A stretch of 64,000 bases of DNA from Candidatus Sabulitectum sp. (GTDB lineage: Bacteria; Fermentibacterota; Fermentibacteria; Fermentibacterales; JCC-6). Below, one piece after another: positions 43,111 through 63,003 of this stretch. A program made the translations under genes and the position numbers. The notes under the pieces are model-generated. The model was not told the DNA's origin. It was given only the letters and a program-made list of their open reading frames with translations, and searched no databases. The stretch spans positions 3,641 through 67,640 of the forward strand of contig JAIOSV010000104.1 of NCBI GenBank assembly GCA_021107435.1, in the 5' to 3' direction. Every line of letters begins with the position of its first letter. Position 1 is the stretch's first letter.

Positions 43111-43132
43111 GAAGTCTTCTGAAGCACTTCAT

Positions 43133-43172
43133 TGATAAAGCTGAGAGAAATCTTTCTCTCTCAGCTTTATCA
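43133..43172 (+). terminator. Hairpin ending the B12-regulated operon
   Basis: 16-bp perfect inverted repeat tgataaagctgagaga / tctctcagctttatca. Confidence 0.6.
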
Positions 43173-43356
43173 TAACCTTAACACATCTGCTGTTATGGAC
43201 TAACAGACAAGCCTGTAGCTCGGGAAAACCGGATCAGAGGAAAGCTCCCAGAATGTTGACTCGTTCAAACAGATTTCTTAGTTTCGATAATGATCTTTAA
43301 AGAAACAAAGTATTTCATTGAAAATTGATGTTTTTTCGTATCGGGCGGTTTAATGT

Positions 43357-44295: not shown

Positions 44296-44368
44296 CTGAC
44301 AGGCTTCATCCTGTTCCTGCGTATGAATTCGCAGCCTTTCGAATTGCAAAACAATAGCTGCATCACAG

Positions 44369-45796: not shown

Positions 45797-45803
45797 CACA
45801 AAC

Positions 45804-47012: not shown

Positions 47013-47210
47013 GATGTTCCTTGTCAGGGGACATGCAGATACCTGCAATCCCGAAATTTGCTTAGTTGCTACAGATTGCTTTCTTCTTCATCCCAAAGAT
47101 AACCCTACTTACCAGAGTAGCCAAGCGATTCGAGCTGACCGTTGACCGGTAGAATCCCCAGCTGTATTGTGTCAGGCTGGATATTTTCGGAATTCATAAC
47201 GGAGGTGTGT

Positions 47211-48251
47211 ATGGGACTCGAGGAAAAGGTAAGGGCACTTTTGGAAGATGCTCAATTGAAAGAACGCAAGGCTGTACCAGATGCTCTTCAGAACATTACC
47301 AAAGAACGGGTAAGGCTTATTCTCACACTAATTGATCGCTGCACTGACGACATGGTAGATACTGTTTTTGCACTGCTTGATGATCAGCAATCAAGTTGGT
47401 TTCCGAAAGCAGACCCAAGCTTGAAATTCTGTGATGGTGCTTCAATAGGTCACATCGGTGCCCATATCGGTATTCTTCAAAGGGGTAATACAAGAAAGCT
47501 GGATCGCGAGGGCAGAGATTACTGGGTCAAGCCCTTGTGTGAAGTGGGAGCTGTTCAACGCGTGATATTATTGAGCGATACGGGATACTTCATCTCAGGC
47601 CATCCAATTGCAAAATCACCGAATAGCGCCTACCGTTTGGATAAAGAATTCATGGAATTGCTAAAAACCCCCGGCGATAAACTTGATGAAGAAGTTCGTG
47701 CCTGGATCGAGGAAGACTCCGTGCGCAAGCGTCTCAAACTTCAGGCTCTAATGGCGGTGAAAGCCAGTCGTCAGATTGATAAGAAGCATGCAACACTCAT
47801 TAGCACATGTATAGACGTATATATGAAGAGCTTCTTACCTGGGTTCGAAGTACTGTATGTCGACGATCAAGATGGTAATAGAATAACCAAAGATGCTCAA
47901 GCAAAGCTTAAAAAAGCCGGGTTGGAACTTATACTGGGAGATGCCATGCCAGATGTTCTCCTCTGGAAGACAGGAACGGCATTCTTCTGGGTTGTTGAGG
48001 CAGTAACCAGCGATGGCGAAGTTGATCTCTCAAAAGTCACATTGATTAAAAGATTTCTGCAACGAACTCTTCCAGATGCAAAGGTCGGATTCACTACCGC
48101 CTACCGGCACTGGCGAGACGTGGCACGGCGGCAAGGCAAGTACAAAAATCTGGCTCCAAATACTTACCTATGGGTTCAGGAAGACCCTTCAAAACACTTC
48201 CAGATAGTTACTTTTGACGATCAGAGCCACAGTCATCTCACCTTTTGTTAA
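47211..48251 (+). CDS. BsuBI/PstI-family type II restriction endonuclease
   Basis: KSPNSAY, MPDVLL...VVEAVTSDGEVD, FTTAY; GGAGG RBS before ATG 47211. Confidence 0.82.
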   Translation: MGLEEKVRALLEDAQLKERKAVPDALQNITKERVRLILTLIDRCTDDMVDTVFALLDDQQSSWFPKADPSLKFCDGASIGHIGAHIGILQRGNTRKLDREGRDYWVKPLCEVGAVQRVILLSDTGYFISGHPIAKSPNSAYRLDKEFMELLKTPGDKLDEEVRAWIEEDSVRKRLKLQALMAVKASRQIDKKHATLISTCIDVYMKSFLPGFEVLYVDDQDGNRITKDAQAKLKKAGLELILGDAMPDVLLWKTGTAFFWVVEAVTSDGEVDLSKVTLIKRFLQRTLPDAKVGFTTAYRHWRDVARRQGKYKNLAPNTYLWVQEDPSKHFQIVTFDDQSHSHLTFC

Positions 48252-49807
48252 GAATCTGGTGGTGAATGAAGTAGAGTTCTGACTACTTCATCAATTTCGT
48301 ACTGGGATAAAGGCATTCGATCTACTGCTATTTTCCCCATTTGCTCAAGAGTTACACGATTGGGATAGCGAAATGTTCTCAGGTCAGTAGCATTGACCTG
48401 CGTATGCCCATTGAATTGTCTGAAAAAAAGATCTACTGGAGTACTATTTAAAAATACTGAAAGACCAAACGTGAATTCCCTGTCTAAACCCTTGCCACCT
48501 GCATGATAGTAGTTAATATGGTTCTCAACCCCAATCCTCTCGGCATTCAGCCTGGTTGGATCATAGACCACCGCAACGACACGACGACGCTCCTCTTTTG
48601 AACTGAATCGTTTTACCAGAACATAATATCCCTTAGGAATCAGCAAAGAACGAGAATCAGTACAATCGAGAATAGCGTTTGGTTTTTTCCCCTCCAGTTT
48701 TGGCCAATTTACCAAACCCGAAGAAAAATGGCAGGGGTAAATAAGCGGAACCGTGCTATTCTCCGGTTTCTGGAGCAGGTACTTTTTAGCACGGAAATCA
48801 ATAACCCTGCCAGTAGACACCACAATTCCAAGATCACCCAGCGTAGCCGGAAGAGAAAACATCCATTCGGCTAAAACTGCATCTGAAGATCCAGTTGGCA
48901 GATAAATAAATGTATCCCCGTTTGAAGATCGTACAACCTCTTCATAGGAAGCAATATTAGATGTTATCGGGTTAACTCCCTTTTTGCTCAATGAGACTTG
49001 AATTGGATCACCTGTTGGTTTTGCTTTAACTGCATGAACAATGATATTCTCTTGAAGTACTCCATCATCGCCAAAAGCATCTTTTCTTGAATCAAAAACA
49101 TGAATCCGCTTCAAGGTCATCTCGGAAAGTAATTGCTTACGAAACAGCCTGAAATATGGACCGTTGCAGAAACTTCGAGGTAAAATTGCAACGAGCTGAC
49201 CACCTGGTCTCAAAAGTCGAATAGACAAGGCGACAAAAGCAGCGTATAAGTTTGTTGCGTCCAATCCAATTGATTGAAGCAGGAGACGCTCACGGGATTG
49301 TGCTCTAATCTTCTTGTAAGGCGGATTAAGAATTGCGGCATCAAATTCTAACGAGCATTCACTAAATAATCCGGCGTTCAAGGCACTGACAGCTGTTTCA
49401 ATAAAATCATTATGTCGAAAGTCAGATTTAAATAAGATGTTTTCACGCTCTGCAATCGATACACAATCTTTCAAGGTTTCCTCAAGGTGTCGAAATAGAA
49501 CATCATTCAATTCGAAGGCAGTACTATGAATGGAGTCAACCTTTTTATGCCGAGAACAACACTCTTTGACAAAAGCGGCGGTAAGACTACCTGTTCCTGC
49601 TCCTGCGTCCAGAACCCTTACTGCTTCTGGAAAATCATCAAACATTTCAGCCATGAGGCAGGCAATATTCATGGGAGTCATAAATTGCCCATGAGTACTC
49701 CTTCCGGCACGATCAAGTTCAACAATCGTTGAATGTCTGCGCTTCTCTGCTTGAACAATTGTATTCGCAACGGTTGCTGCACCAAGAGCTTCTCCCCCGG
49801 AAACCAC
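48248..49807 (-). CDS. N6-adenine DNA methyltransferase (BsuBI/PstI, Eco57I-like gamma class)
   Basis: GQFMTP, LDAGAGTG, ILNPPY, PRSFCNGPYF, RQFNGHTQVNATDL. Confidence 0.92.
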   Translation of the reverse strand: MVSGGEALGAATVANTIVQAEKRRHSTIVELDRAGRSTHGQFMTPMNIACLMAEMFDDFPEAVRVLDAGAGTGSLTAAFVKECCSRHKKVDSIHSTAFELNDVLFRHLEETLKDCVSIAERENILFKSDFRHNDFIETAVSALNAGLFSECSLEFDAAILNPPYKKIRAQSRERLLLQSIGLDATNLYAAFVALSIRLLRPGGQLVAILPRSFCNGPYFRLFRKQLLSEMTLKRIHVFDSRKDAFGDDGVLQENIIVHAVKAKPTGDPIQVSLSKKGVNPITSNIASYEEVVRSSNGDTFIYLPTGSSDAVLAEWMFSLPATLGDLGIVVSTGRVIDFRAKKYLLQKPENSTVPLIYPCHFSSGLVNWPKLEGKKPNAILDCTDSRSLLIPKGYYVLVKRFSSKEERRRVVAVVYDPTRLNAERIGVENHINYYHAGGKGLDREFTFGLSVFLNSTPVDLFFRQFNGHTQVNATDLRTFRYPNRVTLEQMGKIAVDRMPLSQYEIDEVVRTLLHSPPDS

Positions 49808-49947
49808 TATCGAAAAACCTCCTGTTCTTTCAATATCTTAACCTCTAATATCACAAAAAACTCCAATATGCAAGTCTCTGAATTGATGAAATTGAAATCA
49901 TAGAGCAGTCGGGCATGCAGCAAGCTGCATGCCCACAGATATTACTT

Positions 49948-51345
49948 TTAATAATTGTTCTTCAGGAATTCTTTGAAAGCCCTGTATCCTGTTGGAAGGT
50001 GTTCGTATGACTCTTTCTTTTCTTCAAGCCCCTGCAGGCTTGGCGGTAACTTCGGATCAAAAGAGAGGATCTCCCTTATCTTCTCCGGGAACTTAGCGGG
50101 ATGAGCCGTTTCCAGAGATATGCAGAGCTGGTTTTTGTTCACCTCTTCATCTTCGAGATAACGCTGCAGTCCGGCCCAGCCAACGGAACCATGGGGTTCA
50201 AGAAGAAGCCCATGCTCTTTATATGCATCGCTTATCATAACTTCAGTATCTGTATCGCTAATACTTACTGCATACATATCTTTCCTGATGAGATCCATAT
50301 CAGGTGCATTACTAATTGAACCGTTCTCGTCCATGTTCCCGCCGTACAGTTGAACCAGTCTGGGTATATTGCTTGGGTGTCCCACGTTCATCGCGCTGGA
50401 TATGCAGTTGAGAGATGGTTCGATTTTTTCATAAACACCTGATTTGACAAACTTCGGAAACTCATCATTCTCATTTGTAGCAACCACAAACTTTTTAACA
50501 GGCAGCCCCATGTTCTTCGCAATAAGGCCACCGCAGAGGTCGCCGAAATTCCCGGAAGGTACCGAGAAAACAACCTGCTCGCCCGGATCTCCCGACCGAA
50601 GCTTTGCGAAAGAATAGAAGTAATACATCGTCTGCGGAATAAGTCGTCCGATGTTGATTGAATTCGCCGATGACAGGTTCAGATAATCCAGTTCAGAATC
50701 ACCAAAAGCCTGCTTTACCAGCGTCTGACAATCGTCAAACTTACCGTCGAGAGCCACTATTGAAACATTCTTCCCGAGGGTTGTCATCTGCTTGCGCTGA
50801 CGGGCTGTTACTTCTTTCTCCGGAAACAGCACCAGAACCTTCACATTGTTCAATCCGTAGAAAGCGTTTGCGATGGCGCTTCCGGTATCCCCGGAGGTTG
50901 CGGTAAGAATCAGCAGTTTCCCGTTGTTTCTGTTCAGGAAATACTGCATGAGGCGCCCCATCATTCTCGCGGCGAAATCTTTAAAGGATGCGGTCGGGCC
51001 CTGATCCAGTCTCATGATGTAGTTATTGTTGTAGACATGTTCAAGAGGTATTTCGTAATTGTATGCGTCCATGACTATGCGCTTAAGGTCTTCATCCGGA
51101 ATCTCACCAGCAAGAAATCTCCTGCTTACCTCAAAAGCAATCTCATAGTACTGAGCATCTGAGAACTTGAGGATTTCCTCCGGGGTCAGCCGGGGTATCT
51201 CTTCAGGCATGTAGAGGCCACCGTCAGGCGCTATTCCCTTAAGAAGAGCCTGCTCAAAAGAAACCGCAGGTGCTCTTCGATTCGTTGATCTGAAAAGTAT
51301 CTTTCTGTTATCCATTCCAAGTCCCTTGCTTAGTTCTGCCGTCAC
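49948..51345 (-). CDS. thrC: Threonine synthase
   Basis: APDGGLYMP, GPTASFKDF, ATSGDTG, SANSINIGRL, VPSGNFG, ETAHPAKF; start may be ATG 51315. Confidence 0.95.
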   Translation of the reverse strand: MTAELSKGLGMDNRKILFRSTNRRAPAVSFEQALLKGIAPDGGLYMPEEIPRLTPEEILKFSDAQYYEIAFEVSRRFLAGEIPDEDLKRIVMDAYNYEIPLEHVYNNNYIMRLDQGPTASFKDFAARMMGRLMQYFLNRNNGKLLILTATSGDTGSAIANAFYGLNNVKVLVLFPEKEVTARQRKQMTTLGKNVSIVALDGKFDDCQTLVKQAFGDSELDYLNLSSANSINIGRLIPQTMYYFYSFAKLRSGDPGEQVVFSVPSGNFGDLCGGLIAKNMGLPVKKFVVATNENDEFPKFVKSGVYEKIEPSLNCISSAMNVGHPSNIPRLVQLYGGNMDENGSISNAPDMDLIRKDMYAVSISDTDTEVMISDAYKEHGLLLEPHGSVGWAGLQRYLEDEEVNKNQLCISLETAHPAKFPEKIREILSFDPKLPPSLQGLEEKKESYEHLPTGYRAFKEFLKNNY

Positions 51346-52574
51346 CCCGACGACGGCAGCTGGTTTCGAATGCAGTCGGAGAGTCTCTTTGCTGCTTCCG
51401 CCAGCTGCTCCTTTGAGGCGAACGAAAAGTTGATTCTCATGGTGTTCTTCCGAGGATTCTCCCCGAAGAAAACATCCCCGGGCACGAATGCCACCTTGAA
51501 TTTGATGGCTTCGTAGAACAGCTCGTGGGTATCAATTCCTTCGGGTACTGTGACCCAGAGGAAGAGACCTCCTTCCGGTTTGGTCCAGGTAACACCCATT
51601 TCTTCAGGGAAACACTCTTCCATGGTTTTAAGAAAGACTTCGAGCTTCGCACGATAGTAATTCCTGCACTTCAGAATGTGTTCTTCCATGCCCATCTCGG
51701 TGAGAAAGGCAGCGCACATATCCTGATTGTACTTGGGGGTGTTCAGAACATTCCCCTCTTTGATGTTGGTCAGTTTCGCAATAACTTCGGGAGGACCGAT
51801 GTTGAAGCCTATTCTCAGACCGGGGCAGAAGAGTTTTGAAAAAGTGTACAGACCAATGACATTACCGCCACCGCGCTGCTGATCCAGTGAGTAGATGGAA
51901 GGAATGGTCTCTCCATAGTAACGGAAGTCCCGGTAGGGGCTGTCCTCCAGAATCGGGATGTTGTGGTCTCTGCTTAAATCGATAAGAGCAAGTCTTTTCT
52001 CCAGACTCATGGTTATACCGGAAGGATTCTGGAAATCAGGAATAACATAGATGAACTTGGGTTTCCTGCCCTCTTCCTCCATAGCTTCTATTTTTGAGCG
52101 AAACCCGTCAACATCGGAGCCATCCTCCTGAATATCCACACCGGCGAACTCAGGACGCTGCATCTGGAACGCGACAATTGCTCCCGCGAATGTAGGCCGG
52201 TCCAGCAGAGCAGTATCTCCTGGATTAAGGAAAAGTCTTCCGATAAGATCCAGACCGTGCTGCCCTGATGATGTTACCATGATATTGTCATGGGTCACTT
52301 TGATATTGTCTCTTGCGAGAAACTTAACAATGGCATCAAGAAGAGACGGCTCGCCCTTGATTGCAGTGTACTGCATTACTTTTTCAAGATTCTCTTCAAG
52401 TATCTTTCCGGAGGCAAGTCTCATCTCGTGCTTCAGGAACATATCCGGTGAAGGTAGTCCTCCGGCAAGCGATATGATCTCAGGATCTTTGAGAAGATCA
52501 AAGAGTTTGCCGATGGAGTACCCTCCATACACGCTGATATTGTCTGAAAAACGCGAATTCCAGTTCTGTATCAT
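51342..52574 (-). CDS. PLP-dependent aminotransferase class I (LysN/MocR-like)
   Basis: SLAGGLP, PDFQNPSG, EDSPY, TFSKLFCPGLRIG, PEGGLFLW. Confidence 0.92.
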   Translation of the reverse strand: MIQNWNSRFSDNISVYGGYSIGKLFDLLKDPEIISLAGGLPSPDMFLKHEMRLASGKILEENLEKVMQYTAIKGEPSLLDAIVKFLARDNIKVTHDNIMVTSSGQHGLDLIGRLFLNPGDTALLDRPTFAGAIVAFQMQRPEFAGVDIQEDGSDVDGFRSKIEAMEEEGRKPKFIYVIPDFQNPSGITMSLEKRLALIDLSRDHNIPILEDSPYRDFRYYGETIPSIYSLDQQRGGGNVIGLYTFSKLFCPGLRIGFNIGPPEVIAKLTNIKEGNVLNTPKYNQDMCAAFLTEMGMEEHILKCRNYYRAKLEVFLKTMEECFPEEMGVTWTKPEGGLFLWVTVPEGIDTHELFYEAIKFKVAFVPGDVFFGENPRKNTMRINFSFASKEQLAEAAKRLSDCIRNQLPSSG

Positions 52575-52609
52575 GAGAGATTCACCTCCGGATTCTGATT
52601 GTTATTGAC

Positions 52610-53860
52610 TTAACGCTTCTGTGAACTCTCGGCAAAGATGGCCCTGATGCCCTTTTTCATCATAGCTCTGCCATCCTTTGAGGCCCTGACAGCTTTGTTG
52701 AAAATGACTTCGCCAATCTCCATGCCAATGGCTTCGCGCTCTTCCTCGGATATGAAGTAGGTGCCCATGGTATCAAGTTCATGCGCGGTGCCATCGCTCT
52801 CATACTTGAAGGTCATGTTTGTGCCGCTCTCAAGAACTTTAAACATGTGATCTGTCCAGTTGAAACCAGGCATGCCCAGATCGGGGTTAATGTAGATGTG
52901 AGCAGCAAGACTGATACCCTTGATACCGCTTGCGTCCAGTTCCTTTGCGCACTGGATGAAGTTGGCTGCCGTGCTTCCGTTGCCAATGTTGATCTCGTAG
53001 ATGGGCGAGGTGCCGTCTTCGCGGATGTACTCGTTCATGATGTTCAGAAGCATCCTGAACTGAATCGGGTTCTGTGTGGCAAGAAGCATTGAAATCTTGA
53101 TGTGAAGATTGGGCAGATCACGACCGTAGTAGCAGATTGCGACAATGGTACTCCAGCTTGGGTTCAGGAAGAAATTCCCGCCGGTCGCAAGGGCTGTGCG
53201 GGTAACGCCATCGAGATAAATCAGATGGTTGTTGTTGGCCACTTCAATTCCGCCGAAATTACCGAAAGGAGTACCCTGGTTCTTCAGGGTAAGGGCGCAG
53301 GTTCCATTTTCACATTCATATCGCTCAAATTTTTCTCCTGTAACAGCTTCAAGCTCTCTGAACCTGGCTTCTGGCTGCGGTATTCCGATAAGATTTGTGC
53401 TGCAGAACTTGCTGGCTTTCATGATGTTTTCAGCCATTGCAAGTGTTGCCATAAGATCACCATTGTAAATGTAGTTGTCGGTGAGGGCCACTACTGATAT
53501 CATCTCCTGCGGGGCGAAGCATGGCTCTGCGGTTTCAGCGCTTTCCGCTATCCGTTTAATCGAATTATGAGTAACCTTGGCCCCCTGGAATCCTGAAACC
53601 TGGCTTGTTCCTATCCCAAGAGAATCATTGTAGACTATTCCATTCGCCTTCTCAAAATCCGATACCTGAGCGAATTTGAGAACATTGGCTTCCGCCTCTT
53701 CGATTATTTTCCCGAAGCCCTTTTCAGCAAGGATCCGCTTCCTTGTTTCGAAATCCCGCATTTTCCTTATGGTCTTCACAATGTGATCTGCTCCACCATG
53801 ATGATTCTTAAGAGCGTCCATGGCTTTCATATCGGCATCTGACAGTAGCGGATACTTCAT
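52610..53860 (-). CDS. Uncharacterised protein (~416 aa), first gene of the thrC operon
   Basis: Long ORF with AGGAGG RBS before MKYPLL; co-oriented and closely spaced with the aminotransferase. Confidence 0.8.
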   Translation of the reverse strand: MKYPLLSDADMKAMDALKNHHGGADHIVKTIRKMRDFETRKRILAEKGFGKIIEEAEANVLKFAQVSDFEKANGIVYNDSLGIGTSQVSGFQGAKVTHNSIKRIAESAETAEPCFAPQEMISVVALTDNYIYNGDLMATLAMAENIMKASKFCSTNLIGIPQPEARFRELEAVTGEKFERYECENGTCALTLKNQGTPFGNFGGIEVANNNHLIYLDGVTRTALATGGNFFLNPSWSTIVAICYYGRDLPNLHIKISMLLATQNPIQFRMLLNIMNEYIREDGTSPIYEINIGNGSTAANFIQCAKELDASGIKGISLAAHIYINPDLGMPGFNWTDHMFKVLESGTNMTFKYESDGTAHELDTMGTYFISEEEREAIGMEIGEVIFNKAVRASKDGRAMMKKGIRAIFAESSQKR

Positions 53861-54227
53861 CGGTTCCTCCTGTTCAACCTCATACGAGGTTCGCCTGTGC
53901 AAGGCAGTTATAAAAAGAAAATACCCCTTTTCTATCTTCCCCCTCTAATTTGACTAAATACGAGAGAAAATACACCTTTCGGCTCTGTCCAGCAATAAGG
54001 GTACAGGGCACCGAATGTGTCACAATCTCTGCGGGTGATGAATCAAACAAAACGGCATGAGAATACGAATGATGTTGTCATAACACCCTCCCTCTTCTCC
54101 AGGGATTCCTGTATGCCGAAAGCAGTAATGTTATCAACTCCTGGAACATTCTGATTGCTCGCAAGTACTTATCTTCTGTACCTGAATACTACTTGCAACA
54201 ACTCATGAGCAGTGAAGGAAAAAGCTA

Positions 54228-56528
54228 ATGCTGAGTCTGACGATAGTGCTGCTTTGTGCCGGTTTCATTGAGATTGAAGTACATCCTGACCTTAACGGTT
54301 TGCATGTAATCAGCGAAGGCGTATTCCATCAAATTGTTTTACCTGATTCCCCTTTTCTGGGTTTGGAAGGAGAGCCGGATCTCCCCTTTATGCCTTTGAG
54401 ATTTGCTCTGCAGAGCGGGCAGACGACCAGTAATGTAATTCTTCGCAACTGCCGATATGATACGCTTCCCGGTTTTTACGATCTTGCGCCGGTAACTCCG
54501 ATTCTATGCACTACTGGCACTGAAACCCCTTTCGTCTCACCTGATGCGCGTATTTATTCAAGTGACTCATTCTATCCTGAAAATCTACTGGAGCACTGGC
54601 AATCCGGAGTGCTGTGGGGAATGTCACTGGTAACTGCCTGGATAAGGCCTGTTCAATGGAACCCGGTTACCGGACAGATACGGATTCTTCGCATGTCTGA
54701 AGTTGTTGTTGAATGCACAGAGGATCTCCGAAAACCAATGATTCGAGCAAGAACACAGTGGAGTGAAAACAGAGCCCTGGAGATTCTGGAAACCACAGTA
54801 CTTAATCCTTGTGACATTTCTTCCTCCAGAGCCGCTATCGTCGAACCGGGGCAGTTACAATACGGACAGTATGTAATTATCACAGCTCCCGAGTACCTGA
54901 TTCCCATGCAGGAGCTTGCAGACTGGAAAACAGCCAAGGGCATTCCAGCTGGAGTCTTCACGACGGACTGGGTTCAGAACAACTACCCGTGCCTTGATCT
55001 CCAACAGAGTGTACGGGCCTTTTTGACAGACTGCAGAGATGAGGGGGTCGATTTCGTTCTTCTAACGGGAGATAACGATATCTTCGAGGCTCGATTTACT
55101 TATCCGAATCAGTCCTCTTATACTCCACTTCCCTCTGATCTTTACTACGCTGACAACAACGACATTCAGCCCGGTTTTGATATGTGGGACAGCAATGGAA
55201 ACGGATTATGGGGAGAACCGGAAGACAGTCTCGACTGGCATCCCGACCTCTGGGTGGGCCGGGCATCGGTCAACAGCCTGGAAGAGGCGGAGATATTTGT
55301 GGACAAGGTCCTGATCTACGAACACGTCCAGACTGTCCCCGTGCTTCAGAACTCCGGCAGAAGATGGCCGGAAGAAACGCTGTTCGGGTATACAACGGGT
55401 TTCCTGCTTGAGGGGTCTGCAGCCCCGGGAAGCAGGTATGCTGAGTCTATCTCAGTCAATGTTCCTTCTTTCTGGTTGGAAGAGAAGTGCTATGAATCAT
55501 GGGGCAACAACTCAGCAGAAATCACGATTGCCATGATTAATAACGGCCCTCATCAGGTTTTTCATGCCAACCATGGTTTTGCAACCGGTATGTACACTGC
55601 ATACGGAGATATATTCACTGTAGAAGACATTATGGAGTTACAGAACATCTCAAACTCGGGAAACGTAGCCATCTGGCATTCGATAGCCTGTGAACTGGGG
55701 GCCTTTGATACCCTGACATGCTGTGCTGACGCCTGGCTGAATGCCCCGGAAGGCGGTGGATTCGCCTGCATGAACGCGCGGCCAGTCTTAGCAAGCTACA
55801 GTTTTCCCATATGTGAACAGTTCTATAACGCCTTCCTGGTCAATAATTTTTATGAGCTAGGCATTGCTCATGGTATGTCACTGGACTACCTGTGTCCACC
55901 AACGAGTGAGATGGCAGGCTGCATAATACAGGGCAACAACCTGTTCGGGGATCCGGAGCTACCAATGTGGACGCTGCCCGGCGGCTCAATGATTGTAAGC
56001 TGCCCCTCCAGTATTGATGGCAGCTCTCAGATTCCAATACAGGTTTCGACATCAGAGGGTTTACCAATCGAAGGTGCCAGAGTATGTCTTCAGAAGGGGA
56101 ACTGGCAGACCGGGGAAATCTATGAAGTTGGCTATACTGATATTGCAGGCCAATTGTCTTTGTACGCAAATCCCCAAACTCTTGGTGAAATCAATTTGAC
56201 AGTGTGGGCTCACAACTTTGATCCAGACAGCAGGAGCATAACAGTCAGTTCTCTGGAGAACATTACTATCCCCCGGCGCATCCTGATGAAGATCACCCCG
56301 AATCCATCAACAATTTCTGTTCAAATACAGTTCTCACTTCCCTGGCCTGCGGAAGTGCAACTGAGTGTATTCGATATCTCAGGCCGCATTGTTTCTATTC
56401 CGGCTTCAGGACAGTATGGTTGCGGTCTCCACGCAGTAACAATAGATGATCTTCAACCTGGAATTTATTTTGCAAGAATTGAATCAGGTGATTTCTCTTC
56501 AACAATCAATTTCGTTCTAATCGACTGA
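54228..56528 (+). CDS. Peptidase C25 (gingipain-like) with propeptide and T9SS-type CTD
   Basis: LADWKTAKG, SDLYYAD, PDLWVGRA, NHG/IAC His-Cys dyad, NLFGDPEL, ITPNP...VFDISGR...PGIYFAR. Confidence 0.9.
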   Translation: MLSLTIVLLCAGFIEIEVHPDLNGLHVISEGVFHQIVLPDSPFLGLEGEPDLPFMPLRFALQSGQTTSNVILRNCRYDTLPGFYDLAPVTPILCTTGTETPFVSPDARIYSSDSFYPENLLEHWQSGVLWGMSLVTAWIRPVQWNPVTGQIRILRMSEVVVECTEDLRKPMIRARTQWSENRALEILETTVLNPCDISSSRAAIVEPGQLQYGQYVIITAPEYLIPMQELADWKTAKGIPAGVFTTDWVQNNYPCLDLQQSVRAFLTDCRDEGVDFVLLTGDNDIFEARFTYPNQSSYTPLPSDLYYADNNDIQPGFDMWDSNGNGLWGEPEDSLDWHPDLWVGRASVNSLEEAEIFVDKVLIYEHVQTVPVLQNSGRRWPEETLFGYTTGFLLEGSAAPGSRYAESISVNVPSFWLEEKCYESWGNNSAEITIAMINNGPHQVFHANHGFATGMYTAYGDIFTVEDIMELQNISNSGNVAIWHSIACELGAFDTLTCCADAWLNAPEGGGFACMNARPVLASYSFPICEQFYNAFLVNNFYELGIAHGMSLDYLCPPTSEMAGCIIQGNNLFGDPELPMWTLPGGSMIVSCPSSIDGSSQIPIQVSTSEGLPIEGARVCLQKGNWQTGEIYEVGYTDIAGQLSLYANPQTLGEINLTVWAHNFDPDSRSITVSSLENITIPRRILMKITPNPSTISVQIQFSLPWPAEVQLSVFDISGRIVSIPASGQYGCGLHAVTIDDLQPGIYFARIESGDFSSTINFVLID

Positions 56529-56636
56529 TAGAAAACTCCTGAATCACATGACATCCCGTAGGGAATGCTTTTCGAACTTTAAGAAAAATTCTGGAGTGTA
56601 TACTCGTAAATTAAATACAGATAGTTTCAGGCACAA

Positions 56637-56891
56637 TTACTTATTGATTAATTCAGATACTGCTCTTCGCACATACTCATCAAATTTCGGAACTGTAAAA
56701 GCAATAAGACCTCTTTCGGGACTGTAGGTTATTCCCTTGCCAATGATCTCTTTTCTAATTGGTGCTGCCTGCTTTACAGAAATTCCCAGCACATCTGCTA
56801 CTTCTGTTGAGTTGGACGGTCCTGAACCCAATTCTGCCATAGCACGGACATACATCCGCATGCTGAGTCTCCAGTGCATATATGTCGGCAA
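56637..56891 (-). pseudogene. C-terminal fragment of an AAA-type ATP-binding protein
   Basis: YVRAMAELGSGP...IGKGITYSPERGLIAFTVPKFDEYVRR resembles the wHTH tail of these ATPases; N-terminal part absent. Confidence 0.6.
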
Positions 56892-57015
56892 CGATCTTTG
56901 ATTGGCGGTTTCTCAGGTGGTATGGTCTGTTTCAAGCAGGAATCGGAGGCTTATTGGGACGGATGGACTGCTTTGTGAGCAGGTTATGGGATTGCGGAAA
57001 ATCCATTGTCCTATT

Positions 57016-57142
57016 GCTTAATGTTCTGCGTGTGCGGCGGAATCAGCAGGATTCCGTCGTAAACAAACTGACCAGCAGTTTGAATCGGAACGATTTAAGC
57101 AAAGAACACTAACCAGCTTACGCGATGACACGCTTGTTATGT
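57016..57142 (-). mobile_element. Integron attC-like site
   Basis: R'' ACATAAC shortly after the APH stop, arms GCGTGT...ACACGC, R' (A)TTAAGC; 127 bp. Confidence 0.65.
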
Positions 57143-57164
57143 GCATTTTCACAATTATTCAGCT

Positions 57165-58103
57165 TTAATCTATTTTTTCTAAAAGCTTTAAGGCAAAATC
57201 ATAGCTCTCTTTTTGATCAGTTTTTGCATAAAACCTTAAGGCATCTAAACCAAAATAGTATTTATAACAATTTATTCTTTCGTAGTAATTTTCCGTTTTC
57301 ATATTTTTTGATTCTAAATACTCTTTAAACTTTTCAATAATGTAATTACCTAATAAATCAGAAAACCAAAAACCAAAATATGTGAAATCCAATAAGAAAT
57401 CACCATATCTTGAATCTTGCCAATCTATGATTGCCGATATTTTTTTATTGTGAACTATAATGTTTGAAAAACTAAAATTTCCATGCATGAAATACCTATC
57501 CTCAGGGAGATATTTAAGTAATTCTTTCATTTTTTGATAATAAAATTCATAAGTTCTTCTATCCAAAAAAGTTGTTTCAAACAAATCGTACCATTTACCG
57601 TAAAATAGTTCGTCTGGTTCTTCTTCCATTACAAAATTGATATGATCTCGCCATGTGGAAAACCATCCATTTCCCCCAGAACTAAACCAACCATATCCAG
57701 TTGTATTTTTAATATCAATTTTTGAGATATTTATTAATGCATCAAAAATGAAAGGCAAAAGTTCTTTTATCTCAGATTCACTTAACTCCTGTAATTTCTT
57801 ACCTTTCACTTCTTCAGTTATGGCATAGTGTATACCATTGATTACATCACGTTTTACGACATTTCGTACAGGAATGTTTAATGCCTTAAATCTATCAAAA
57901 TAATCTAATTCTTTTCCAGTTCCTCCCGACATGTTTGCTTGATTAAATTGAATAAAGAATTTGTTCTTACCAATATTGAATGAATAGGTTTTAGCAATTT
58001 CTCCTCCGGGTATTTCCGTTAAATTTTCAAAATGAATATTGAAATTACTATCAATAATATTTTTTAGATCTTTTTTACTTATTTTAGGCTTCTCATATTT
58101 CAT
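57165..58103 (-). CDS. Aminoglycoside phosphotransferase, APH(4)/hygromycin-kinase-like, in an AT-rich cassette
   Basis: TTGYGWF...GWFSTWRD, HGNFSFSNI, IIDWQDSRYGD; strongly AT-rich relative to neighbours. Confidence 0.8.
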   Translation of the reverse strand: MKYEKPKISKKDLKNIIDSNFNIHFENLTEIPGGEIAKTYSFNIGKNKFFIQFNQANMSGGTGKELDYFDRFKALNIPVRNVVKRDVINGIHYAITEEVKGKKLQELSESEIKELLPFIFDALINISKIDIKNTTGYGWFSSGGNGWFSTWRDHINFVMEEEPDELFYGKWYDLFETTFLDRRTYEFYYQKMKELLKYLPEDRYFMHGNFSFSNIIVHNKKISAIIDWQDSRYGDFLLDFTYFGFWFSDLLGNYIIEKFKEYLESKNMKTENYYERINCYKYYFGLDALRFYAKTDQKESYDFALKLLEKID

Positions 58104-58140
58104 GTATTATTCTTTCTTACTATTATTCATGCTAAAATGC

Positions 58141-58185
58141 ACATAATGAATGTATTCCCGAACAAGTTCGTGGATATCTAACTTT
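58141..58185 (-). mobile_element. attI-like site at the 5' end of the cassette
   Basis: Core (A)TTATGT preceded by imperfect inverted repeat tatccacgaac/gttcgggaata. Confidence 0.35.
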
Positions 58186-58723
58186 ACATTTCCCTAAATT
58201 GAGCGGTTCGCTTGTTTTCACTCACAAATCATCATAAATCACCTCTGCTTTCCAGTCAATCTTCCAAGCACAGTCTTTCAGACTCCTCTTAACCCCAACA
58301 TCATCATACTGCAGAATACTTTCCTCCTATAATCCTCTGGAGTGAATTGCTTGCCAGTGTCAATAACTCACCTCTACCAGCAAGCTCCAATGGAGGGGCT
58401 CCAGGGCTATATGGATTCTTAATTGGATTCATTATATAGGGATTCCATGTTCTCAGGTGAATGACTTTTGCACAACTGCGAAATTCTCATCCTCTTTCTA
58501 TCCTCTGCTTGAGAAGAGTAGCCCTCCTGGTTATTTGGTTCAAATACACTAACTACTACTAACTTCATTAGAATTAAACTCTTGATTCGAAAAGTCAACG
58601 CTAACCTGTTGGTGTAATATGTCTAATTTGGGTAGAGCTTCTCATAAAACACTATGATGAAAGCATATCCCGGTGCCATAGTAAACACTTTAGATTTGGA
58701 GCGAAAAGTTCTAGGATTCCATA

Positions 58724-58752
58724 TGGCACCCAGTAGTGGACACTTATCGAAC
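58724..58752 (+). repeat. tRNA-3'-end-like att repeat, copy 1
   Basis: TGGCACCCAGTAGTGGACACTTATCGAAC. Confidence 0.85.
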
Positions 58753-58796
58753 AATTTGTAGAAGGAGTTCTACAGCTCTGTAGAAGTTGTTCTACC

Positions 58797-58825
58797 TGGC
58801 ACCCCGTAGTGGATACTCTTAGAAC
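58797..58825 (+). repeat. tRNA-3'-end-like att repeat, copy 2
   Basis: TGGCACCCCGTAGTGGATACTCTTAGAAC. Confidence 0.85.
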
Positions 58826-58924
58826 TGTAAGAACCGGGTTATCACAAGACGGTAATAAGGATGATTGATTGAATAGCAGCCAACTGAAACAATATGAATA
58901 GATTCAATCTTGCTCGGTGTAAAG

Positions 58925-59434
58925 TCAGTGTATCGCTAGCCCAAGCCCAAACCCAATGTAAGCATCTGGATCGAGCTCCCAGCCAATATCTTCTGCATTG
59001 TCCACCATCAGCCCAACACCAAAGCTGGGTTCCAGGTCGATTTGAACTCCGGTGTCTTTCAGATTGCACTTCCAACCGAGTTTCATACCAGTGTTAATGG
59101 ATTCAATCATGTCACCGCTATCCGCCCATTTTAAAGCAGCTCCAGTAATTCCAGATATAAAAAAGCCAGAATATCCTTTAGCTTTATATCTTCTAAATTC
59201 TGCATCCACTCCGAAGCCCCACATTTGTGAATCAAAGAACGAATCTGAATAGAGGAACGAACCACCTGAAAAAAGTATGGAATATTGCGGGTGTTCTTCC
59301 AGCTCAATTTCATAACCATAGGACAGTGTCACGTTCTCAATTGCTGAAAAATCAATATTCCTCATCCTGTTAGGCACCATGGAATCCGCTACAGCAAACC
59401 CATTAGAAAACAACACTATAACCAGTAAAACCAT
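58925..59434 (-). CDS. Hypothetical outer-membrane beta-barrel-like protein
   Basis: Signal peptide (AVA), alternating strands, GAGGA RBS. Confidence 0.65.
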   Translation of the reverse strand: MVLLVIVLFSNGFAVADSMVPNRMRNIDFSAIENVTLSYGYEIELEEHPQYSILFSGGSFLYSDSFFDSQMWGFGVDAEFRRYKAKGYSGFFISGITGAALKWADSGDMIESINTGMKLGWKCNLKDTGVQIDLEPSFGVGLMVDNAEDIGWELDPDAYIGFGLGLAIH

Positions 59435-59570
59435 TTTATTCCTCTTCCATTATGTACTTGTTGTATTACGGGGAAAGGAATTTGTTCCGATTCTACTGGG
59501 AAATCAATTGTTTATGAGCAACCAGTAGTGGACACTTTGGAACTTTAGGTGAAAGTTCGATAATTTCTTC

Positions 59571-59599
59571 TGGCACCCCGTAGTGGATGCTTTCGGAAC
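59571..59599 (+). repeat. tRNA-3'-end-like att repeat, copy 3
   Basis: TGGCACCCCGTAGTGGATGCTTTCGGAAC. Confidence 0.85.
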
Positions 59600-59676
59600 T
59601 GATTTCAGGAAATCCACAACAAGGAAGTCTGGACTTCTCTGATACCCAGGTCTTATCTTTCAAATAACAGAGAGGA

Positions 59677-59901
59677 ATGAACATGGATATCAGTTTTCAG
59701 TTAGAAAAGATGACGATTCTGGAAAAGCTCCAGACGATAGAAGAAATCTGGAAAAATCTAGCAGAATCTTCTAACAGTATACCATCTCCTTCCTGGCATA
59801 ATGATGTACTTCTTGCCAGAGCGGGAAGAGTTGAAGAAGGCTCATCACAATTTTCTGACTGGTCTGAGGCAAAAGACCGAATCCGCAACAAAACCAGATG
59901 A
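59677..59901 (+). CDS. Addiction module antitoxin (TIGR02574-like)
   Basis: MTILEKLQTIEEIW..L, PSPSWH, DWSEAKDRIR; overlaps toxin start. Confidence 0.85.
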   Translation: MNMDISFQLEKMTILEKLQTIEEIWKNLAESSNSIPSPSWHNDVLLARAGRVEEGSSQFSDWSEAKDRIRNKTR

Positions 59902-60203
59902 TTATCCAAGTTCTTGATGATGCTGAGCAGGATCTGATAGATGGATTTAATTTCTACGATTCTCAGGAACTTGGTCTGGGTGACTACTTCATTGATTCTC
60001 TTTTCTCTGATATAGACTCTCTACACCTTTATGCTGGCATTCATCCCATAAGATTCAATTACCACCGCATGCTTTCCCAACGATTCCCATTCGCAATCTA
60101 CTACGAAATAGAAGGGAATACTGTTAAGATATGGGCTGTACTGGATTGCCGACGGGATCCTGTTTCTACCGAGAAAAGGCTGAGGAATCTGGAGCTGAAG
60201 TAA
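59898..60203 (+). CDS. RelE/ParE-family toxin
   Basis: AEQDLIDGFNFY, LGDYF, RFPFAIYY, AVLDCRRDP. Confidence 0.88.
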   Translation: MIIQVLDDAEQDLIDGFNFYDSQELGLGDYFIDSLFSDIDSLHLYAGIHPIRFNYHRMLSQRFPFAIYYEIEGNTVKIWAVLDCRRDPVSTEKRLRNLELK

Positions 60204-60231
60204 TAGCTAATTCTTCCGCTAATCCAAAAAC

Positions 60232-60260
60232 TGGCACCCCATATTGGATACGTTTCGAAC
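60232..60260 (+). repeat. tRNA-3'-end-like att repeat, copy 4
   Basis: TGGCACCCCATATTGGATACGTTTCGAAC. Confidence 0.85.
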
Positions 60261-60475
60261 ACCACTGGAATAAGATGCAGCATTTCTACTGGAAGAAATC
60301 ACAGTACATGTGAGGATACATTTTCTTCCAATCACAGATATGTAGAATCAAGTAATACCTTGTCGAGATCTCAAGAAACTTGACGCCTTATCACATTAAT
60401 GTTATATAACCTCTGCGTGATAAAACCCTGTGTGTTTTTATGTATTTCTGCAAAGATGATGGAAAGTGAGGTATT

Positions 60476-60873
60476 ATGCAATGTGAGATTGAGTATGCCG
60501 ATGAGTTTGGTGATTGGTGGGAAGAGCTATGCGAAGATGAACAGGATTCAGTTACTACTTATCTGAATCTGCTTGAAGCTAGAGGAGTTAAACTTGGTTT
60601 CCCATACTCTTCGGGTGTCGAAAGCTCAAGACACAGCCATATGAGAGAATTAAGAGTACAGCACAGGGGAAACCCATATAGAGTTCTATATGCATTTGAC
60701 CCAAAAAGAACTGCTATTCTTCTAATAGGGGGATGCAAAACTGGAAACAATAAAACAATAGATGGTACGATGAGTTCGTTCCCATTGCTGATAGAATTTA
60801 TGATGAGCATGTCGAAAATTTGAAAAAGAATATTGAAATGAAACCTCCAACCGCCCCAAGGGGCGGGGAATTA
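60476..60873 (+). pseudogene. HigB/RelE-like (Gp49-type) toxin, frameshifted
   Basis: LGFPYSS, HMRELRVQH, YRVLYAFDP.R.AILLIGG; 8-bp duplication at 60745-60760 shifts the conserved RWYDEFVPIADRIYDEH tail out of frame. Confidence 0.8.
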
Positions 60874-60891
60874 GACCCTCCTCAGATTAAA
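60838..60891. repeat. Small palindromic REP/IS200-IS605-end-like element
   Basis: ccgccc-caa-gggcgg hairpin followed by ggaattagaccc...agattaaa, between toxin and antitoxin. Confidence 0.35.
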
Positions 60892-60977
60892 AAAATAGCA
60901 AAGTACGGAATTGGAAAAAGAAGTAGCTAAGTATGGAATCAGGAAGAGAAGTAGGAATAGGAAAAGGAGATGAAATA

Positions 60978-61316
60978 ATGTCGAAGCCTTTCAGGAATCT
61001 TGTTGACAGCATTTCTCCAGAGCGCAAGAGAAAGATAGACTCAAGGACTAATGAGCTTCTACGGGAAATGGAAATTGGTGAGCTCAGAAGGGCTCTGGAC
61101 ATTACACAAGAGGAGCTTGCAGTAGCTTTGGAAATGAAGCAGTCTGCCATTTCCAGAATTGAACATCAGTCAGACATGTTTATTAGCACTCTAGGGAGTA
61201 TCCTTTCTGCTATGGGCGCAACACTGAAGATTGTTGCTAGTTTCCCCGAAGGTGATATACAAATCAATCAATTCGAGGATGTCAGAAATGGTAAGGTTTC
61301 TCCAATAGTAAAATAA
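60978..61316 (+). CDS. XRE-family HTH antitoxin (HigA-like)
   Basis: LRRALDITQEELA...QSAISRIE..SDMFISTL; AAGGAG RBS. Confidence 0.88.
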   Translation: MSKPFRNLVDSISPERKRKIDSRTNELLREMEIGELRRALDITQEELAVALEMKQSAISRIEHQSDMFISTLGSILSAMGATLKIVASFPEGDIQINQFEDVRNGKVSPIVK

Positions 61317-61425
61317 CCGGCCATGTACCCAGGCATATTGTGAATTCTATTCGAGCAGTGCGAGACTAACTTACATGCAGTTTCCGCAGTGGACACCTTC
61401 GAATCTCACGGTAAGAACTTACAGT

Positions 61426-61451
61426 TGGCACCCCGAACAGGATTCGAACCT
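61426..61451 (-). other. tRNA 3'-end fragment (T-loop, acceptor strand, CCA); likely att site
   Basis: Minus strand AGGTTCGAATCCTGTTCGGGGTGCCA; no matching 5' acceptor strand, D-arm or anticodon arm upstream. Confidence 0.8.
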
Positions 61452-61591
61452 TGAATCGCCGGAGCTTTGATAAGCTGAAATAGCTCTGGTCTACGAATAC
61501 ATTTCGTCAGTCAGCCTTTCCCGTGAAGAGGCTTTTCTGTTATTTTCGCATGTTCGTATGGTGGGGTGGTGAGACAGAAGGGTTGAGTGGT

Positions 61592-62458
61592 ATGAGGATC
61601 GCAGATATTTATGAAAAAGATGAGCCTGTTCTTTCTCTTGAGGTATTTCCTCCAAAGCCGGGGTACAGCCTTAAAACAGTATTCCGTACTCTTGATCATC
61701 TCTGTGATCTGAATCCCTCATTTGTCAGTGTTACTTATGCTTCCCAGGGCGAATCAACAAACAGAACTGTTGAGATTGCCTCACGCGTGAGAGATGAATA
61801 CGAATGTGAATCTCTGGCACACATGACCTGTATTGGTCATACCAGGCAGGAAGTGGCCTCTGTTCTGGACAGTCTTGAGGCTCGCGGCGTCGAGAATATT
61901 CTTGCCCTCCGGGGAGATATGCCCTCAGATTCTTCCGGAATAGTCAGAGACTACCATTTCGCCAGCGAGCTTATTGCAGAGATCGCTGATCGCGGCAGCT
62001 TCTGTGTAGGCGCAGCTGCTTACCCGGAAGGGCATATCGAGTCAAAAAGAATAAGCCACGACCTGGACAATCTCAAGCGTAAAGTGGATGCCGGTGCCGA
62101 GTTTCTTATTACACAGTTGTTTTTCGATAACAGGATTTTTTATGACTTCATGGAACGGGCACGATACAGGAACATTGATGTTCCCATTGTCCCGGGGATA
62201 ATGCCCATACTGAACTACAAACAGATTAAAAGAATCCTGATGATGTGCGAGGTATCCATTCCCGCAAAGCTCCTGAATATGTTCGACAAGTACTCCAATG
62301 ACCCAGGAGACCTTGCAAAGGCCGGAGTAGACTATGCGACAGAACAGGTATCGGAACTTGTTGAAGAAGGCGCGCAGGGGATTCATCTCTACACCATGAA
62401 TCGAGTTCCTCAAATTCGGGAAATTATTTTCCGCGCTGATCTTCGGGAACAGATGTGA
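61592..62458 (+). CDS. metF: Methylenetetrahydrofolate reductase
   Basis: SLEVFPPK, FVSVTY, LAHMTC, LALRGD, AAYPEGH, ITQLFFD, HLYTMN. Confidence 0.95.
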   Translation: MRIADIYEKDEPVLSLEVFPPKPGYSLKTVFRTLDHLCDLNPSFVSVTYASQGESTNRTVEIASRVRDEYECESLAHMTCIGHTRQEVASVLDSLEARGVENILALRGDMPSDSSGIVRDYHFASELIAEIADRGSFCVGAAAYPEGHIESKRISHDLDNLKRKVDAGAEFLITQLFFDNRIFYDFMERARYRNIDVPIVPGIMPILNYKQIKRILMMCEVSIPAKLLNMFDKYSNDPGDLAKAGVDYATEQVSELVEEGAQGIHLYTMNRVPQIREIIFRADLREQM

Positions 62459-63003
62459 AACGACTGTTTTTACCGGTAAGCCTTTCCCCGCCCACTCTGA
62501 AGCAGGTACTCTGGCGATCGGGGTGCCCGCCCCATGAGGCTGGAGCAGAAATAGAGGGTAGCGCCAGAAAAGCTCTTTCAGTACTTGAAGAGCTTTCTTC
62601 AGGGGCCGTACATGGCGCTGTGCTCTTTAGTTCAGGGAAACACCCCTGTTTTCTTCAGGGAATATGGCCGGATAAACTGGTTTCAGTTTCCATCACATCC
62701 CTTGGTCACAGAGTTGATCAATTGCTTGAAGGCCCTGCGGAACTGGATCGTTTCATGCTTGATTCCGCCGCTTCAGTAGCAGTTGAATCTTTAATGAAAA
62801 CTCTTCAGGGGGCAATTGCTGACGAATTGAATATGATTCCCACAAAGAGGATAGCTCCCGGATACGGAGATTTTCCTCTAAGTGCACAGAAAAACATTGT
62901 TGAGTTGTTCCCCGACTCCGGGGTAACCTGTAATGAAAGCTTTATGCTGACACCCGTAAAAAGTATGACTGGAGTAACCGGATGGATTCCGCAAAACAAC
63001 TGA
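62455..63003 (+). CDS. Stand-alone methionine synthase activation-domain-like protein
   Basis: LDSAASVAVE, RIAPGYGDFPL, LTPVKSMTG. Confidence 0.85.
   Translation: MKRLFLPVSLSPPTLKQVLWRSGCPPHEAGAEIEGSARKALSVLEELSSGAVHGAVLFSSGKHPCFLQGIWPDKLVSVSITSLGHRVDQLLEGPAELDRFMLDSAASVAVESLMKTLQGAIADELNMIPTKRIAPGYGDFPLSAQKNIVELFPDSGVTCNESFMLTPVKSMTGVTGWIPQNN

Follow-up and report, generated by a model that had tools for sequence, protein, structure and literature searches.

Composite islands of the staphylococcal cassette chromosome (SCC, SCCmec) at rlmH are moved by Ccr large serine recombinases (LSRs) which are able to act in trans, and they stack recombinase-bearing elements and recombinase-less pseudo-elements between direct-repeat integration sites. 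In integrons, the cassette sites (attC) are imperfect inverted repeats of 60–140 bp with R′′/L′′…L′/R′ boxes. Cis-mobilizable elements (CIMEs) and accretion at tRNA genes have been reviewed (Guedon et al. 2017, PMC5704250). The ssrA islands of Dehalococcoides are tandem and bounded by 20-bp repeats of the tmRNA gene 3′ end, as reported in the parts of the original study which deal with island structure (McMurdie et al. 2011, PMC3146451). Their CcrB-like serine recombinase of 540 amino acids (aa), DsiB, is missing from about half of the islands, and those without an integration module were proposed as cis-mobilizable elements (PMC3146451). To judge by likeness of architecture and by these descriptions, the ssrA islands are the closest published analogue of the system examined here. 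This system is found in a stretch of 64,000 nucleotides of Candidatus Sabulitectum sp. (contig JAIOSV010000104.1; the whole stretch is called the window), where a row of small gene modules is delimited by a 29-nt repeat and closed by a short sequence which resembles the 3′ end of a tRNA.

We propose, with a probability of roughly 0.68, that such rows arise by LSR-driven accretion, in which non-autonomous cassettes are added at a decoy site of tRNA origin, and that the internal 29-nt site (R29) and the terminal site (Tend, 61426–61449) are the recombination sites of LSR elements. What the data show directly is the existence of this family of sites, the polarity of the sites, their association with LSR genes and the reshuffling of cassettes between species. 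Below, G0xx denotes genomes, Cxx contigs and Lxxx the sequence stretches compared. The window lies on contig C74 of genome G000 (124 contigs, 3.38 Mb), and the metagenome-assembled genomes compared are 68–95% complete.

R29 occurs in co-oriented copies at 58724..58752, 58797..58825, 59571..59599 and 60232..60260 on the plus strand, followed by the related sequence at 61426. The pattern gives five matches in the window against 0.30 expected from shuffled sequences, and five were reached in 0 of 100 shuffles. These repeats had been described in a first-pass annotation of this DNA, whose spacings of 73, 774, 661 and 1194 nt are recovered, as is its remark that the internal copies are longer by 5 nt; in comparison with the terminal copy, the additional nucleotides lie between TGGCACCCC, which both have, and the outer GAAC. 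Its further statement that no gene crosses a repeat holds for the Pfam-supported genes, and the absence of a recombinase noted for the window extends to the whole of contig C74, which has no match to the serine (PF00239) or tyrosine (PF00589) recombinase families. A position weight matrix derived from 13 R29 copies adds a fifth, degenerate site at 56549..56577 (+; score 30.1; C74:60189). This is the leftmost recognisable site, so that the array begins at least 2.1 kb further left than first annotated. Reading of the sequence also reveals three decayed R29 copies which have lost the TGGCACCC core (~58672–58695, 59524–59543 and 61386–61406), and next to each of them come a short conserved stretch and an intact site, in this order.

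In G000, 16 good R29 copies are arranged in five co-oriented clusters (C69, C74, C92, C116 and C124). With up to three mismatches allowed, the pattern was found in 21 of 41 related genomes, G000 included: within the genus, 17 of the 18 further genomes have it, as do three of the six other genera of the family, and it is absent from all 16 genomes outside the family (reversed-pattern control, 0). Exact matching against one genome per species, for 185,579 species, retrieved 24 stretches. All 16 which bear a taxon name belong to Candidatus Sabulitectum, Aegiribacteria, Fermentibacteraceae or Fermentibacteria, and the other eight are named ‘uncultured bacterium’. Given this clustered occurrence, limited to Fermentibacteria-type genomes, R29 represents a family of clustered sites specific to this lineage rather than a repeat of the repetitive extragenic palindromic (REP) type. 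REPs and miniature inverted-repeat transposable elements (MITEs) occur as many scattered, usually palindromic copies, and the genome-wide scatter which the first-pass annotation had named as evidence against its own proposal is not found with 16 copies in five co-oriented clusters.

R29 and Tend have a 9-nt core in common and diverge after the common TGGCACCCC. Counts over 107 distinct R29 sites and 23 Tend sites place the conserved block of R29 at −2 to +30, while that of Tend comprises 24 nt plus ‘TC’; from the core to the outer GAAC, the distance is 16 nt in R29 (n = 107) but 11 nt in Tend (n = 23). In L073, the terminal site combines the short spacing with an inner part like that of R29. 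In the A118 family of integrases, according to those parts of Rutherford et al. (2013, PMC3783163) which concern its attachment sites, the zinc-ribbon motif lies 5 bp nearer the centre in attB than in attP, and the attP half-site measures 25 bp. By analogy with this 5-bp shift, the right arm of R29 may be read as P′-type and that of Tend as B′-type. Conservation of the left arms is restricted to sub-families: one reads ...AAGTTCGATAATTTCNTT, another has a hairpin and then ...CATTCGCTT, which resembles the recombinase's own 3′ end, and others read ...GAACTTACAGT and GTTCNNNN. Since R29, Tend and the tRNA diverge there, the crossover would fall at about nt 8–10 of the core. As for dyad symmetry, several centres fit in part and none provides a convincing crossover position.

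The arrays are polar. In 12 of 12 arrays which contain a Tend (the window, L002, L058, L016, L061, L062, L063, L065, L068, L072, L073 and L079), this site is single, lies on the same strand as R29 and stands at the 3′ end. No internal Tend was seen in any array examined. Fourteen further arrays have no Tend within the stretch examined, and most of them run into contig ends. This polarity is compatible with growth by insertion at Tend.

The sequence at 61426 was initially taken for the 3′ end of a tRNA gene on the minus strand. ARAGORN reports 0 tRNA genes in the window, Rfam yields no tRNA match in 57500–62500 even at E values up to 10, and the 70 nt past Tend do not continue the cloverleaf. 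Tend is a free-standing mimic of 24–26 nt, identical at 23 of 26 positions to tRNA-Arg(TCT) of G000; read on the minus strand, it imitates the T-loop, the T-stem, the acceptor strand and CCA. Other Tend copies are identical to tRNA-Asp or tRNA-Arg at 19–21 of 26 positions. Six places in G000 harbor Tend-like sites (C60, C74, C92, C103, C77 and C90), and neither in the window nor at 12 further loci does a tRNA or other RNA gene lie at Tend. What remains of the accretion platform at a tRNA gene, as originally suggested, are thus discrete repeat-bounded modules stacked on a tRNA-like end, with no tRNA gene there.

Real tRNA genes are involved in the sister family. In G032 (36% identity) and G034 (32%), the 3′ end of the LSR homologue overlaps a genuine tRNA-Arg(CCG) gene which is encoded on the other strand. 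An R29-like site, with the same core and then TCGTGGACGCC..., lies in G032 9.2 kb upstream of tRNA-Arg(CCG), and the 35 nt before it match those at the end of the recombinase gene itself, so that a tandem copy seems likely. The true tRNA-Arg(CCG) of G000 is unoccupied. This gene with its upstream region is found at two contig ends (C3:23730-23805 and C75:2-77), an assembly overlap which represents one gene. From these likenesses, Tend appears to descend from the 3′ end of a tRNA, the ancestral target, probably tRNA-Arg.

A recombinase gene elsewhere in the genome, accompanied by the same motif, had been anticipated, and G000 has two LSR genes placed in this way, on C77 (521 aa) and C90 (516 aa). 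Both products combine the Resolvase (PF00239), Recombinase (PF07508) and Zn_ribbon_recom (PF13408) domains, and their PDB matches are the TP901-1 integrase for the catalytic domain and the A118 integrase for the recombinase and zinc-ribbon domains. Tend lies within the last codons of both genes, the proteins ending in ...(L/F)WHPERNSNS, and the flanks diverge directly past TTCGAAC(TC). All five relatives, at 51–93% identity, have the same ending (three in G003, one in G015 and a partial one in G002); with the LSR gene at the element edge beside the attachment site, 7 of 7 close homologues end within Tend. A whole unit is preserved on C80 of G015: R29 at 770, 7.5 kb of genes, the LSR gene and Tend at 8221, with a right flank that continues on C12 of the same genome, before the gene called p177 (see below). 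Over 2677 nt, the C90 element shares 95% identity with an element which occupies another locus in G003, and the match stops exactly at Tend; metF, our core-gene yardstick for genome divergence, is 79% identical between G000 and G003. The LSR elements have in common a 4.4-kb module which comprises a helix-turn-helix (HTH) protein, DUF5659, a 470-aa protein, a 143-aa open reading frame (ORF) and the recombinase. At naive loci, their left end lies beyond the contig ends. The conserved protein of 470–478 aa encoded just upstream of the LSR (L033 4948-6360, L034 3594-5030) has no Pfam match and may serve a replication or directionality function.

Cassettes were surveyed in 90 modules from 26 stretches of 13 genomes. 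Their median size is 776 nt; 23 are shorter than 100 nt, 34 measure 500–999 nt and 22 measure 1–2 kb, and 25 of the 90 have no ORF of at least 55 aa. Cargo-less units of 38–81 bp, which consist only of the two arms, are found in many genomes, and the 73-nt unit of the window is one of them. Among 101 chosen cassette ORFs, 44 point with the site and 57 against it. Pfam searches with 96 cassette ORFs returned FG-GAP proteins secreted by the type IX secretion system (T9SS), ten with a Por_Secre_tail, and toxin-antitoxin families (ParE 6, ParE-like 5, Gp49 3, ParD-like 3, Unstab_antitox 3, Phd/YefM 2). HipA, YafQ, AbiEii with DUF6088, and Abi_2 were found once each.

Three cassettes of the window recur in other species. 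The cassette 59571–60231 is present at full length with 91% identity in G013 (C30) and G018 (C153), the cassette 58797–59570 shows 87% identity over 739 nt in G018 (C205), and the cassette 60232–61425 is ~70–79% identical in G018 (C203) and G009. Their R29 boundaries are kept and their neighbours differ; in G018 they reside on three different contigs. The metF genes of G013 and G018 are 74% and 80% identical to that of G000, compared with 87–91% for two of the cassettes. Four of eleven public sequencing runs, all in contig form, were also examined. Run X4, which stems from a different study, contains near-identical pieces, including contigs across site 60232 and across Tend. Candidate excision joints in the four runs were rejected, as they proved to be paralogous loci (C92 and C124 types) or comprised only 21 nt on one side.

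The mechanism which we favour may be outlined as follows. The ancestral target of the LSR integrative elements would have been a tRNA 3′ end, probably that of tRNA-Arg, and Tend, a decoy of ~24 nt of this end, would serve as a resident landing site of the attB type. Incoming circular elements, with or without an LSR gene of their own, would recombine at Tend. Each insertion would create a hybrid R29 on the left, made of the TGGCACCCC core and the element's longer attP-type arm, and regenerate Tend on the right. Serial insertion would then yield a co-oriented row of the form R29-cassette-R29-cassette-...-Tend, with the newest unit beside Tend. Most units would have no recombinase, being either short cassettes (toxin-antitoxin, abortive-infection and T9SS-secreted proteins) or empty units of 38–81 bp, and they would depend on LSR genes elsewhere, in G000 on those of C77 and C90. 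We infer that the LSR cuts R29 and Tend and that cassettes still move, mobilised in trans.

Comparison of loci shows that module content and order vary among relatives at the same chromosomal site and that module boundaries coincide with the repeats, as the first-pass annotation had expected. At the p177 locus, Tend lies upstream in 8 of 13 genomes (two copies are degenerate) and in a ninth, G015, it is placed by the right flank only; three genomes have no Tend there, and a further contig does not extend far enough. The content left of this Tend varies and comprises a G000-specific patatin region, an eight-site array in G018, mini-cassettes and a recombinase remnant in G016, a recombinase element in G003, a cassette and a recombinase element in G015, and a recombinase remnant in G002. 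The p177 gene itself (L008 5925-6458, G000:C103) encodes a 177-aa protein with a signal peptide and no Pfam family and is often tandemly duplicated. Its product looks like an outer-membrane beta-barrel, and the gene lies 158–277 nt right of Tend in at least eight genomes.

Near metF, the organisation differs between genomes. In relatives, a SAM-I/IV (S-adenosylmethionine) riboswitch placed back-to-back with metF drives a pair of genes for proteins of 243 and 374 aa (L041 2479-2581, L042, L047), and in G018, G007 and G003 another Tend is found past the terminator of the 374-aa gene. This operon is missing from G000 and G010, where Tend abuts a remnant of the riboswitch 5′ end beside metF; owing to this loss, the array of the window ends 75 nt before the metF ORF. 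The remnant, at ~61450–61480 of the window, looks like the first 15–20 nt of the riboswitch. The riboswitch core GGGGGCGCCAAC resembles the site core. Given this likeness, the operon may have been lost when a recombinase acted at a pseudo-site and caused a deletion.

At 61425 of the window, homology with G010 sets in again. G010 is devoid of window positions 50663–61424 and was considered as an empty site; a truncated gene at the left and a 5′-truncated R29 95 nt before Tend indicate a secondary deletion rather than a clean empty site. In comparison with G013, the whole 18 kb from ~43100 of the window to metF are variable (43105–61425), and the variable region may thus begin as far left as that. 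The C25 peptidase gene left of the array (54228–56528, with a T9SS tail) has a best match in the genus of 66%, which is partial, and no close orthologue; it may itself be island cargo.

Several observations weigh against LSR-driven accretion as outlined here. No recombination event has been seen, and the contig-form runs gave no reliable excision or circle joint, a result which carries no weight either way. Recombination between attP and attR is not a reaction of canonical serine integrases, and repeated insertion at a regenerated Tend therefore requires relaxed rules or a B-type left arm. A serine-integrase dimer normally requires two half-sites. Conservation of R29 is one-sided, with its block from −2 to +30, which is unusual for serine integrases, and a recognisable conserved left arm is present in only ~31 of the 107 R29 sites (76 without), rough counts obtained with a crude regular-expression classifier. 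At E ≤ 1e-20, the LSR query had matches in only five genomes, one of them G000, out of 16 searched in the genus, compared with R29 in 17 of the 18 genomes of the genus other than G000. On similarity alone, Tend copies are equally close to tRNA-Asp and tRNA-Arg (19–23 of 26). Moreover, Tend is not ancestral at two loci. The 374-aa-gene locus of G013 is without any trace of it; the 285-aa-gene locus, which houses the C90 element in G000, has a Tend in G000, G010, G018 and G008 and a short Tend-free spacer in G003, G006, G011 and G013. As conservative recombination cannot create a B′-type arm, the decoy must reach new loci by another, presumably rare, route, which lies outside the model. The serial-insertion rule, the one-sided conservation of R29 and the unexplained spread of Tend keep our confidence below 0.7 and leave room for fossil scars.

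According to this fossil alternative, the arrays derive from tandem full-length LSR elements which lost the recombinase and most genes by deletion; R29 copies would be inert scars and nothing would move now. The first-pass annotation had raised a similar possibility, and part of it stands: the last LSR codons precede some R29 sites (L016 +291; L075 8015), G002 retains a partial LSR, and 76 of 107 sites have no recognisable left arm. The window adds three decayed copies and a frameshifted toxin gene, and most array-bearing genomes show no cognate LSR. Against inert scars stand the same cassettes with exact R29 boundaries across species and arrays, at 87–91% identity where the core gene reaches 74–80%, and the arm-only units of 38–81 bp which recur in many genomes (23 of the 90 modules). 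In addition, neutral scars would not be expected to show the strong conservation which the 31-nt block has over 107 sites. We therefore regard purely fossil arrays as unlikely, although they deserve serious consideration. It is considerably less probable that R29 belongs to another enzyme, Xer-like or another tyrosine recombinase, and that the LSR merely has the same tRNA-like end. G000 does have 10 PF00589 matches, but none is located on the array contigs C69, C74, C92, C116 and C124 or beside a site; in G015 and G032, the units with an LSR gene are delimited by R29 or R29-like sites, and LSR 3′ ends directly precede R29 sites. Such an enzyme would suit the dimensions of R29, as the block of ~31 nt is shorter than the usual 40–50-bp site of serine integrases, and both the size of ~30 nt and a weak inner GTA...TAC dyad, found on reading the consensus, fit this class. 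Finally, the repeats could act as RNA, in the form of tRNA-like processing or terminator signals, or represent selfish repeats of the REP/MITE type. The likeness to a tRNA T-arm and acceptor end and the hairpins beside some copies recall such functions, yet the genes of the cassettes point either way with respect to the site (44 versus 57), R29 has no T-arm pairing partner and no Rfam match, and the copies are clustered and co-oriented rather than scattered; we find this explanation barely credible. LSR-driven accretion hence remains the reading that we prefer.

Within the window, the array opens with a module of 2.2 kb (56578..58723) which follows the degenerate R29 and contains an 84-aa ORF without Pfam match (56637–56891, −) and an APH-family kinase (57165–58103, −). 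Only 56846–58262 of this module recurs in other metagenomes, at 90–95% identity, and the module is probably composite. In two unrelated metagenomes, contig depth is raised (~40) at 56922–57095; contig breaks are numerous at 57018–57020, and both features point to another repeated or conserved element within the module. Towards its right end, a decayed R29 with lost core and then a conserved left-arm-like stretch (58672..58695, +) precedes the intact site at 58724, a variant ending in TTATCGAAC. The cargo-less mini-cassette that comes next (58753..58796) has two GTAGAA-N4-TTCTAC hairpins, and the same unit is also found on C124, on C92 and in relatives.

The cassette which starts with the R29 at 58797 encodes a secreted-looking protein of 169 aa with no Pfam family (58925..59434, −), first described as beta-barrel-like, and also contains a decayed R29 followed by the left arm AAAGTTCGATAATTTCTTC (59524..59543, +). 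The cargo of the following cassette (59677..60203, +) is an Unstab_antitox antitoxin (59677–59901) and a ParE-like toxin (59898–60203). The R29 at 60232 is the variant ACGTTTCGAAC, and the cargo of the last cassette (60476..61316, +) comprises a Gp49/HigB-like toxin gene (60476–60900) and an HTH antitoxin (60933–61316). As regards the toxin-antitoxin content first assigned to these modules, the Unstab_antitox, Gp49 and HTH families are retrieved, while the ParE match is weak (E 0.003, below the cut-off). The Gp49/HigB-like gene shows a frame shift near 60755–60765, its conserved C-terminal part RWYDEFVPIADRIYDEHVENLKK being in another frame, and is either a pseudogene or affected by an assembly error. 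Between the Gp49 and HTH genes, ~55 nt (60837–60891) contain the palindrome GCCCCAAGGGGCGGGG. Metagenome contigs contain them in very high copy number (a summed depth of 561 in run X4 and of 36.7 in X3), and many of these contigs break at both edges; the ~55 nt look like a small REP/MITE-type insertion unrelated to R29. A last decayed R29, followed by the left arm GGTAAGAACTTACAGT (61386..61406, +), stands before Tend (61426..61449, +), which forms the right boundary of the array.

A search of the full-text literature, with supplementary files outside its reach, found no paper on this system in Fermentibacterota. If cassettes move in trans, the arrays would represent a second, independently evolved route to cassette arrays, based on a serine and not a tyrosine recombinase, in an uncultured sediment phylum, and this would explain the exchange of defence, toxin-antitoxin and surface-protein genes in these genomes. 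The natural and very short site pairs (~24 and ~31 nt), which differ by a 5-bp spacing change, offer a compact test bed for attP/attB discrimination. The gene-free tRNA-end decoy, for its part, illustrates an attachment site which escapes its original target gene and multiplies. More tentatively, and with the balance tipping slightly against it, the system could be a working serine-recombinase counterpart of the integron, with a portable, tRNA-mimicking primary site of 24 nt at several loci per genome and a cassette site of 31 nt set apart from it by the 5-bp attP/attB spacing. A recombinase encoded at any place in the cell would then capture, stack and reshuffle in trans minimal cassettes with toxin-antitoxin, defence and secreted surface-protein genes, and even empty units of 38 bp, across Fermentibacterota.

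The arrays resemble integrons and clusters of attC sites lacking integron integrases (CALINs) in their short cassettes rich in toxin-antitoxin and defence genes, in the presence of empty cassettes and in the many arrays without an adjacent recombinase. The cargo is like that of chromosomal integrons, but the features which define integrons are absent: IntI, a folded attC and a common promoter are all missing, the cassettes show no bias of orientation, and the enzyme class is different. The R29 block is one-sided and measures ~31 nt, and no inverted partner of the attC type was found. Cassette ORFs run in both directions (44 with the site, 57 against), and the locus, at first labelled ‘integron-like’, is not an integron. 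SCC islands likewise stack recombinase-less units, but they occupy one locus only, where they target the end of a protein gene, and their units measure several kb.

The concept of CIMEs and accretion, in the parts of the review that define it (PMC5704250), applies here too, as recombinase-less tandem units are bounded by att-type repeats. The cases treated there are mainly units of the size of integrative and conjugative or integrative and mobilizable elements at real genes in Firmicutes, whereas the present arrays are multi-locus and made of sub-kb cassettes; neither in the window nor at the 12 further Tend loci was a functional target gene found whose 3′ end could be the anchor. With the Dehalococcoides ssrA islands, as far as their published structure is described in the sections considered, the arrays have in common an LSR, a target at the 3′ end of a tRNA-like RNA gene and tandem repeat-bounded units, many of them recombinase-less. 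The anchor of the ssrA islands is the functional single-copy ssrA gene at one locus, in contrast to a gene-less mimic of 24 nt at six places in G000, and the plain 20-bp repeats described for these islands contrast with internal and terminal sites which differ here by a 5-bp spacing. Lastly, the units of the present arrays are far smaller than the ssrA islands, their median size being 0.78 kb and the smallest of them measuring 38 bp.

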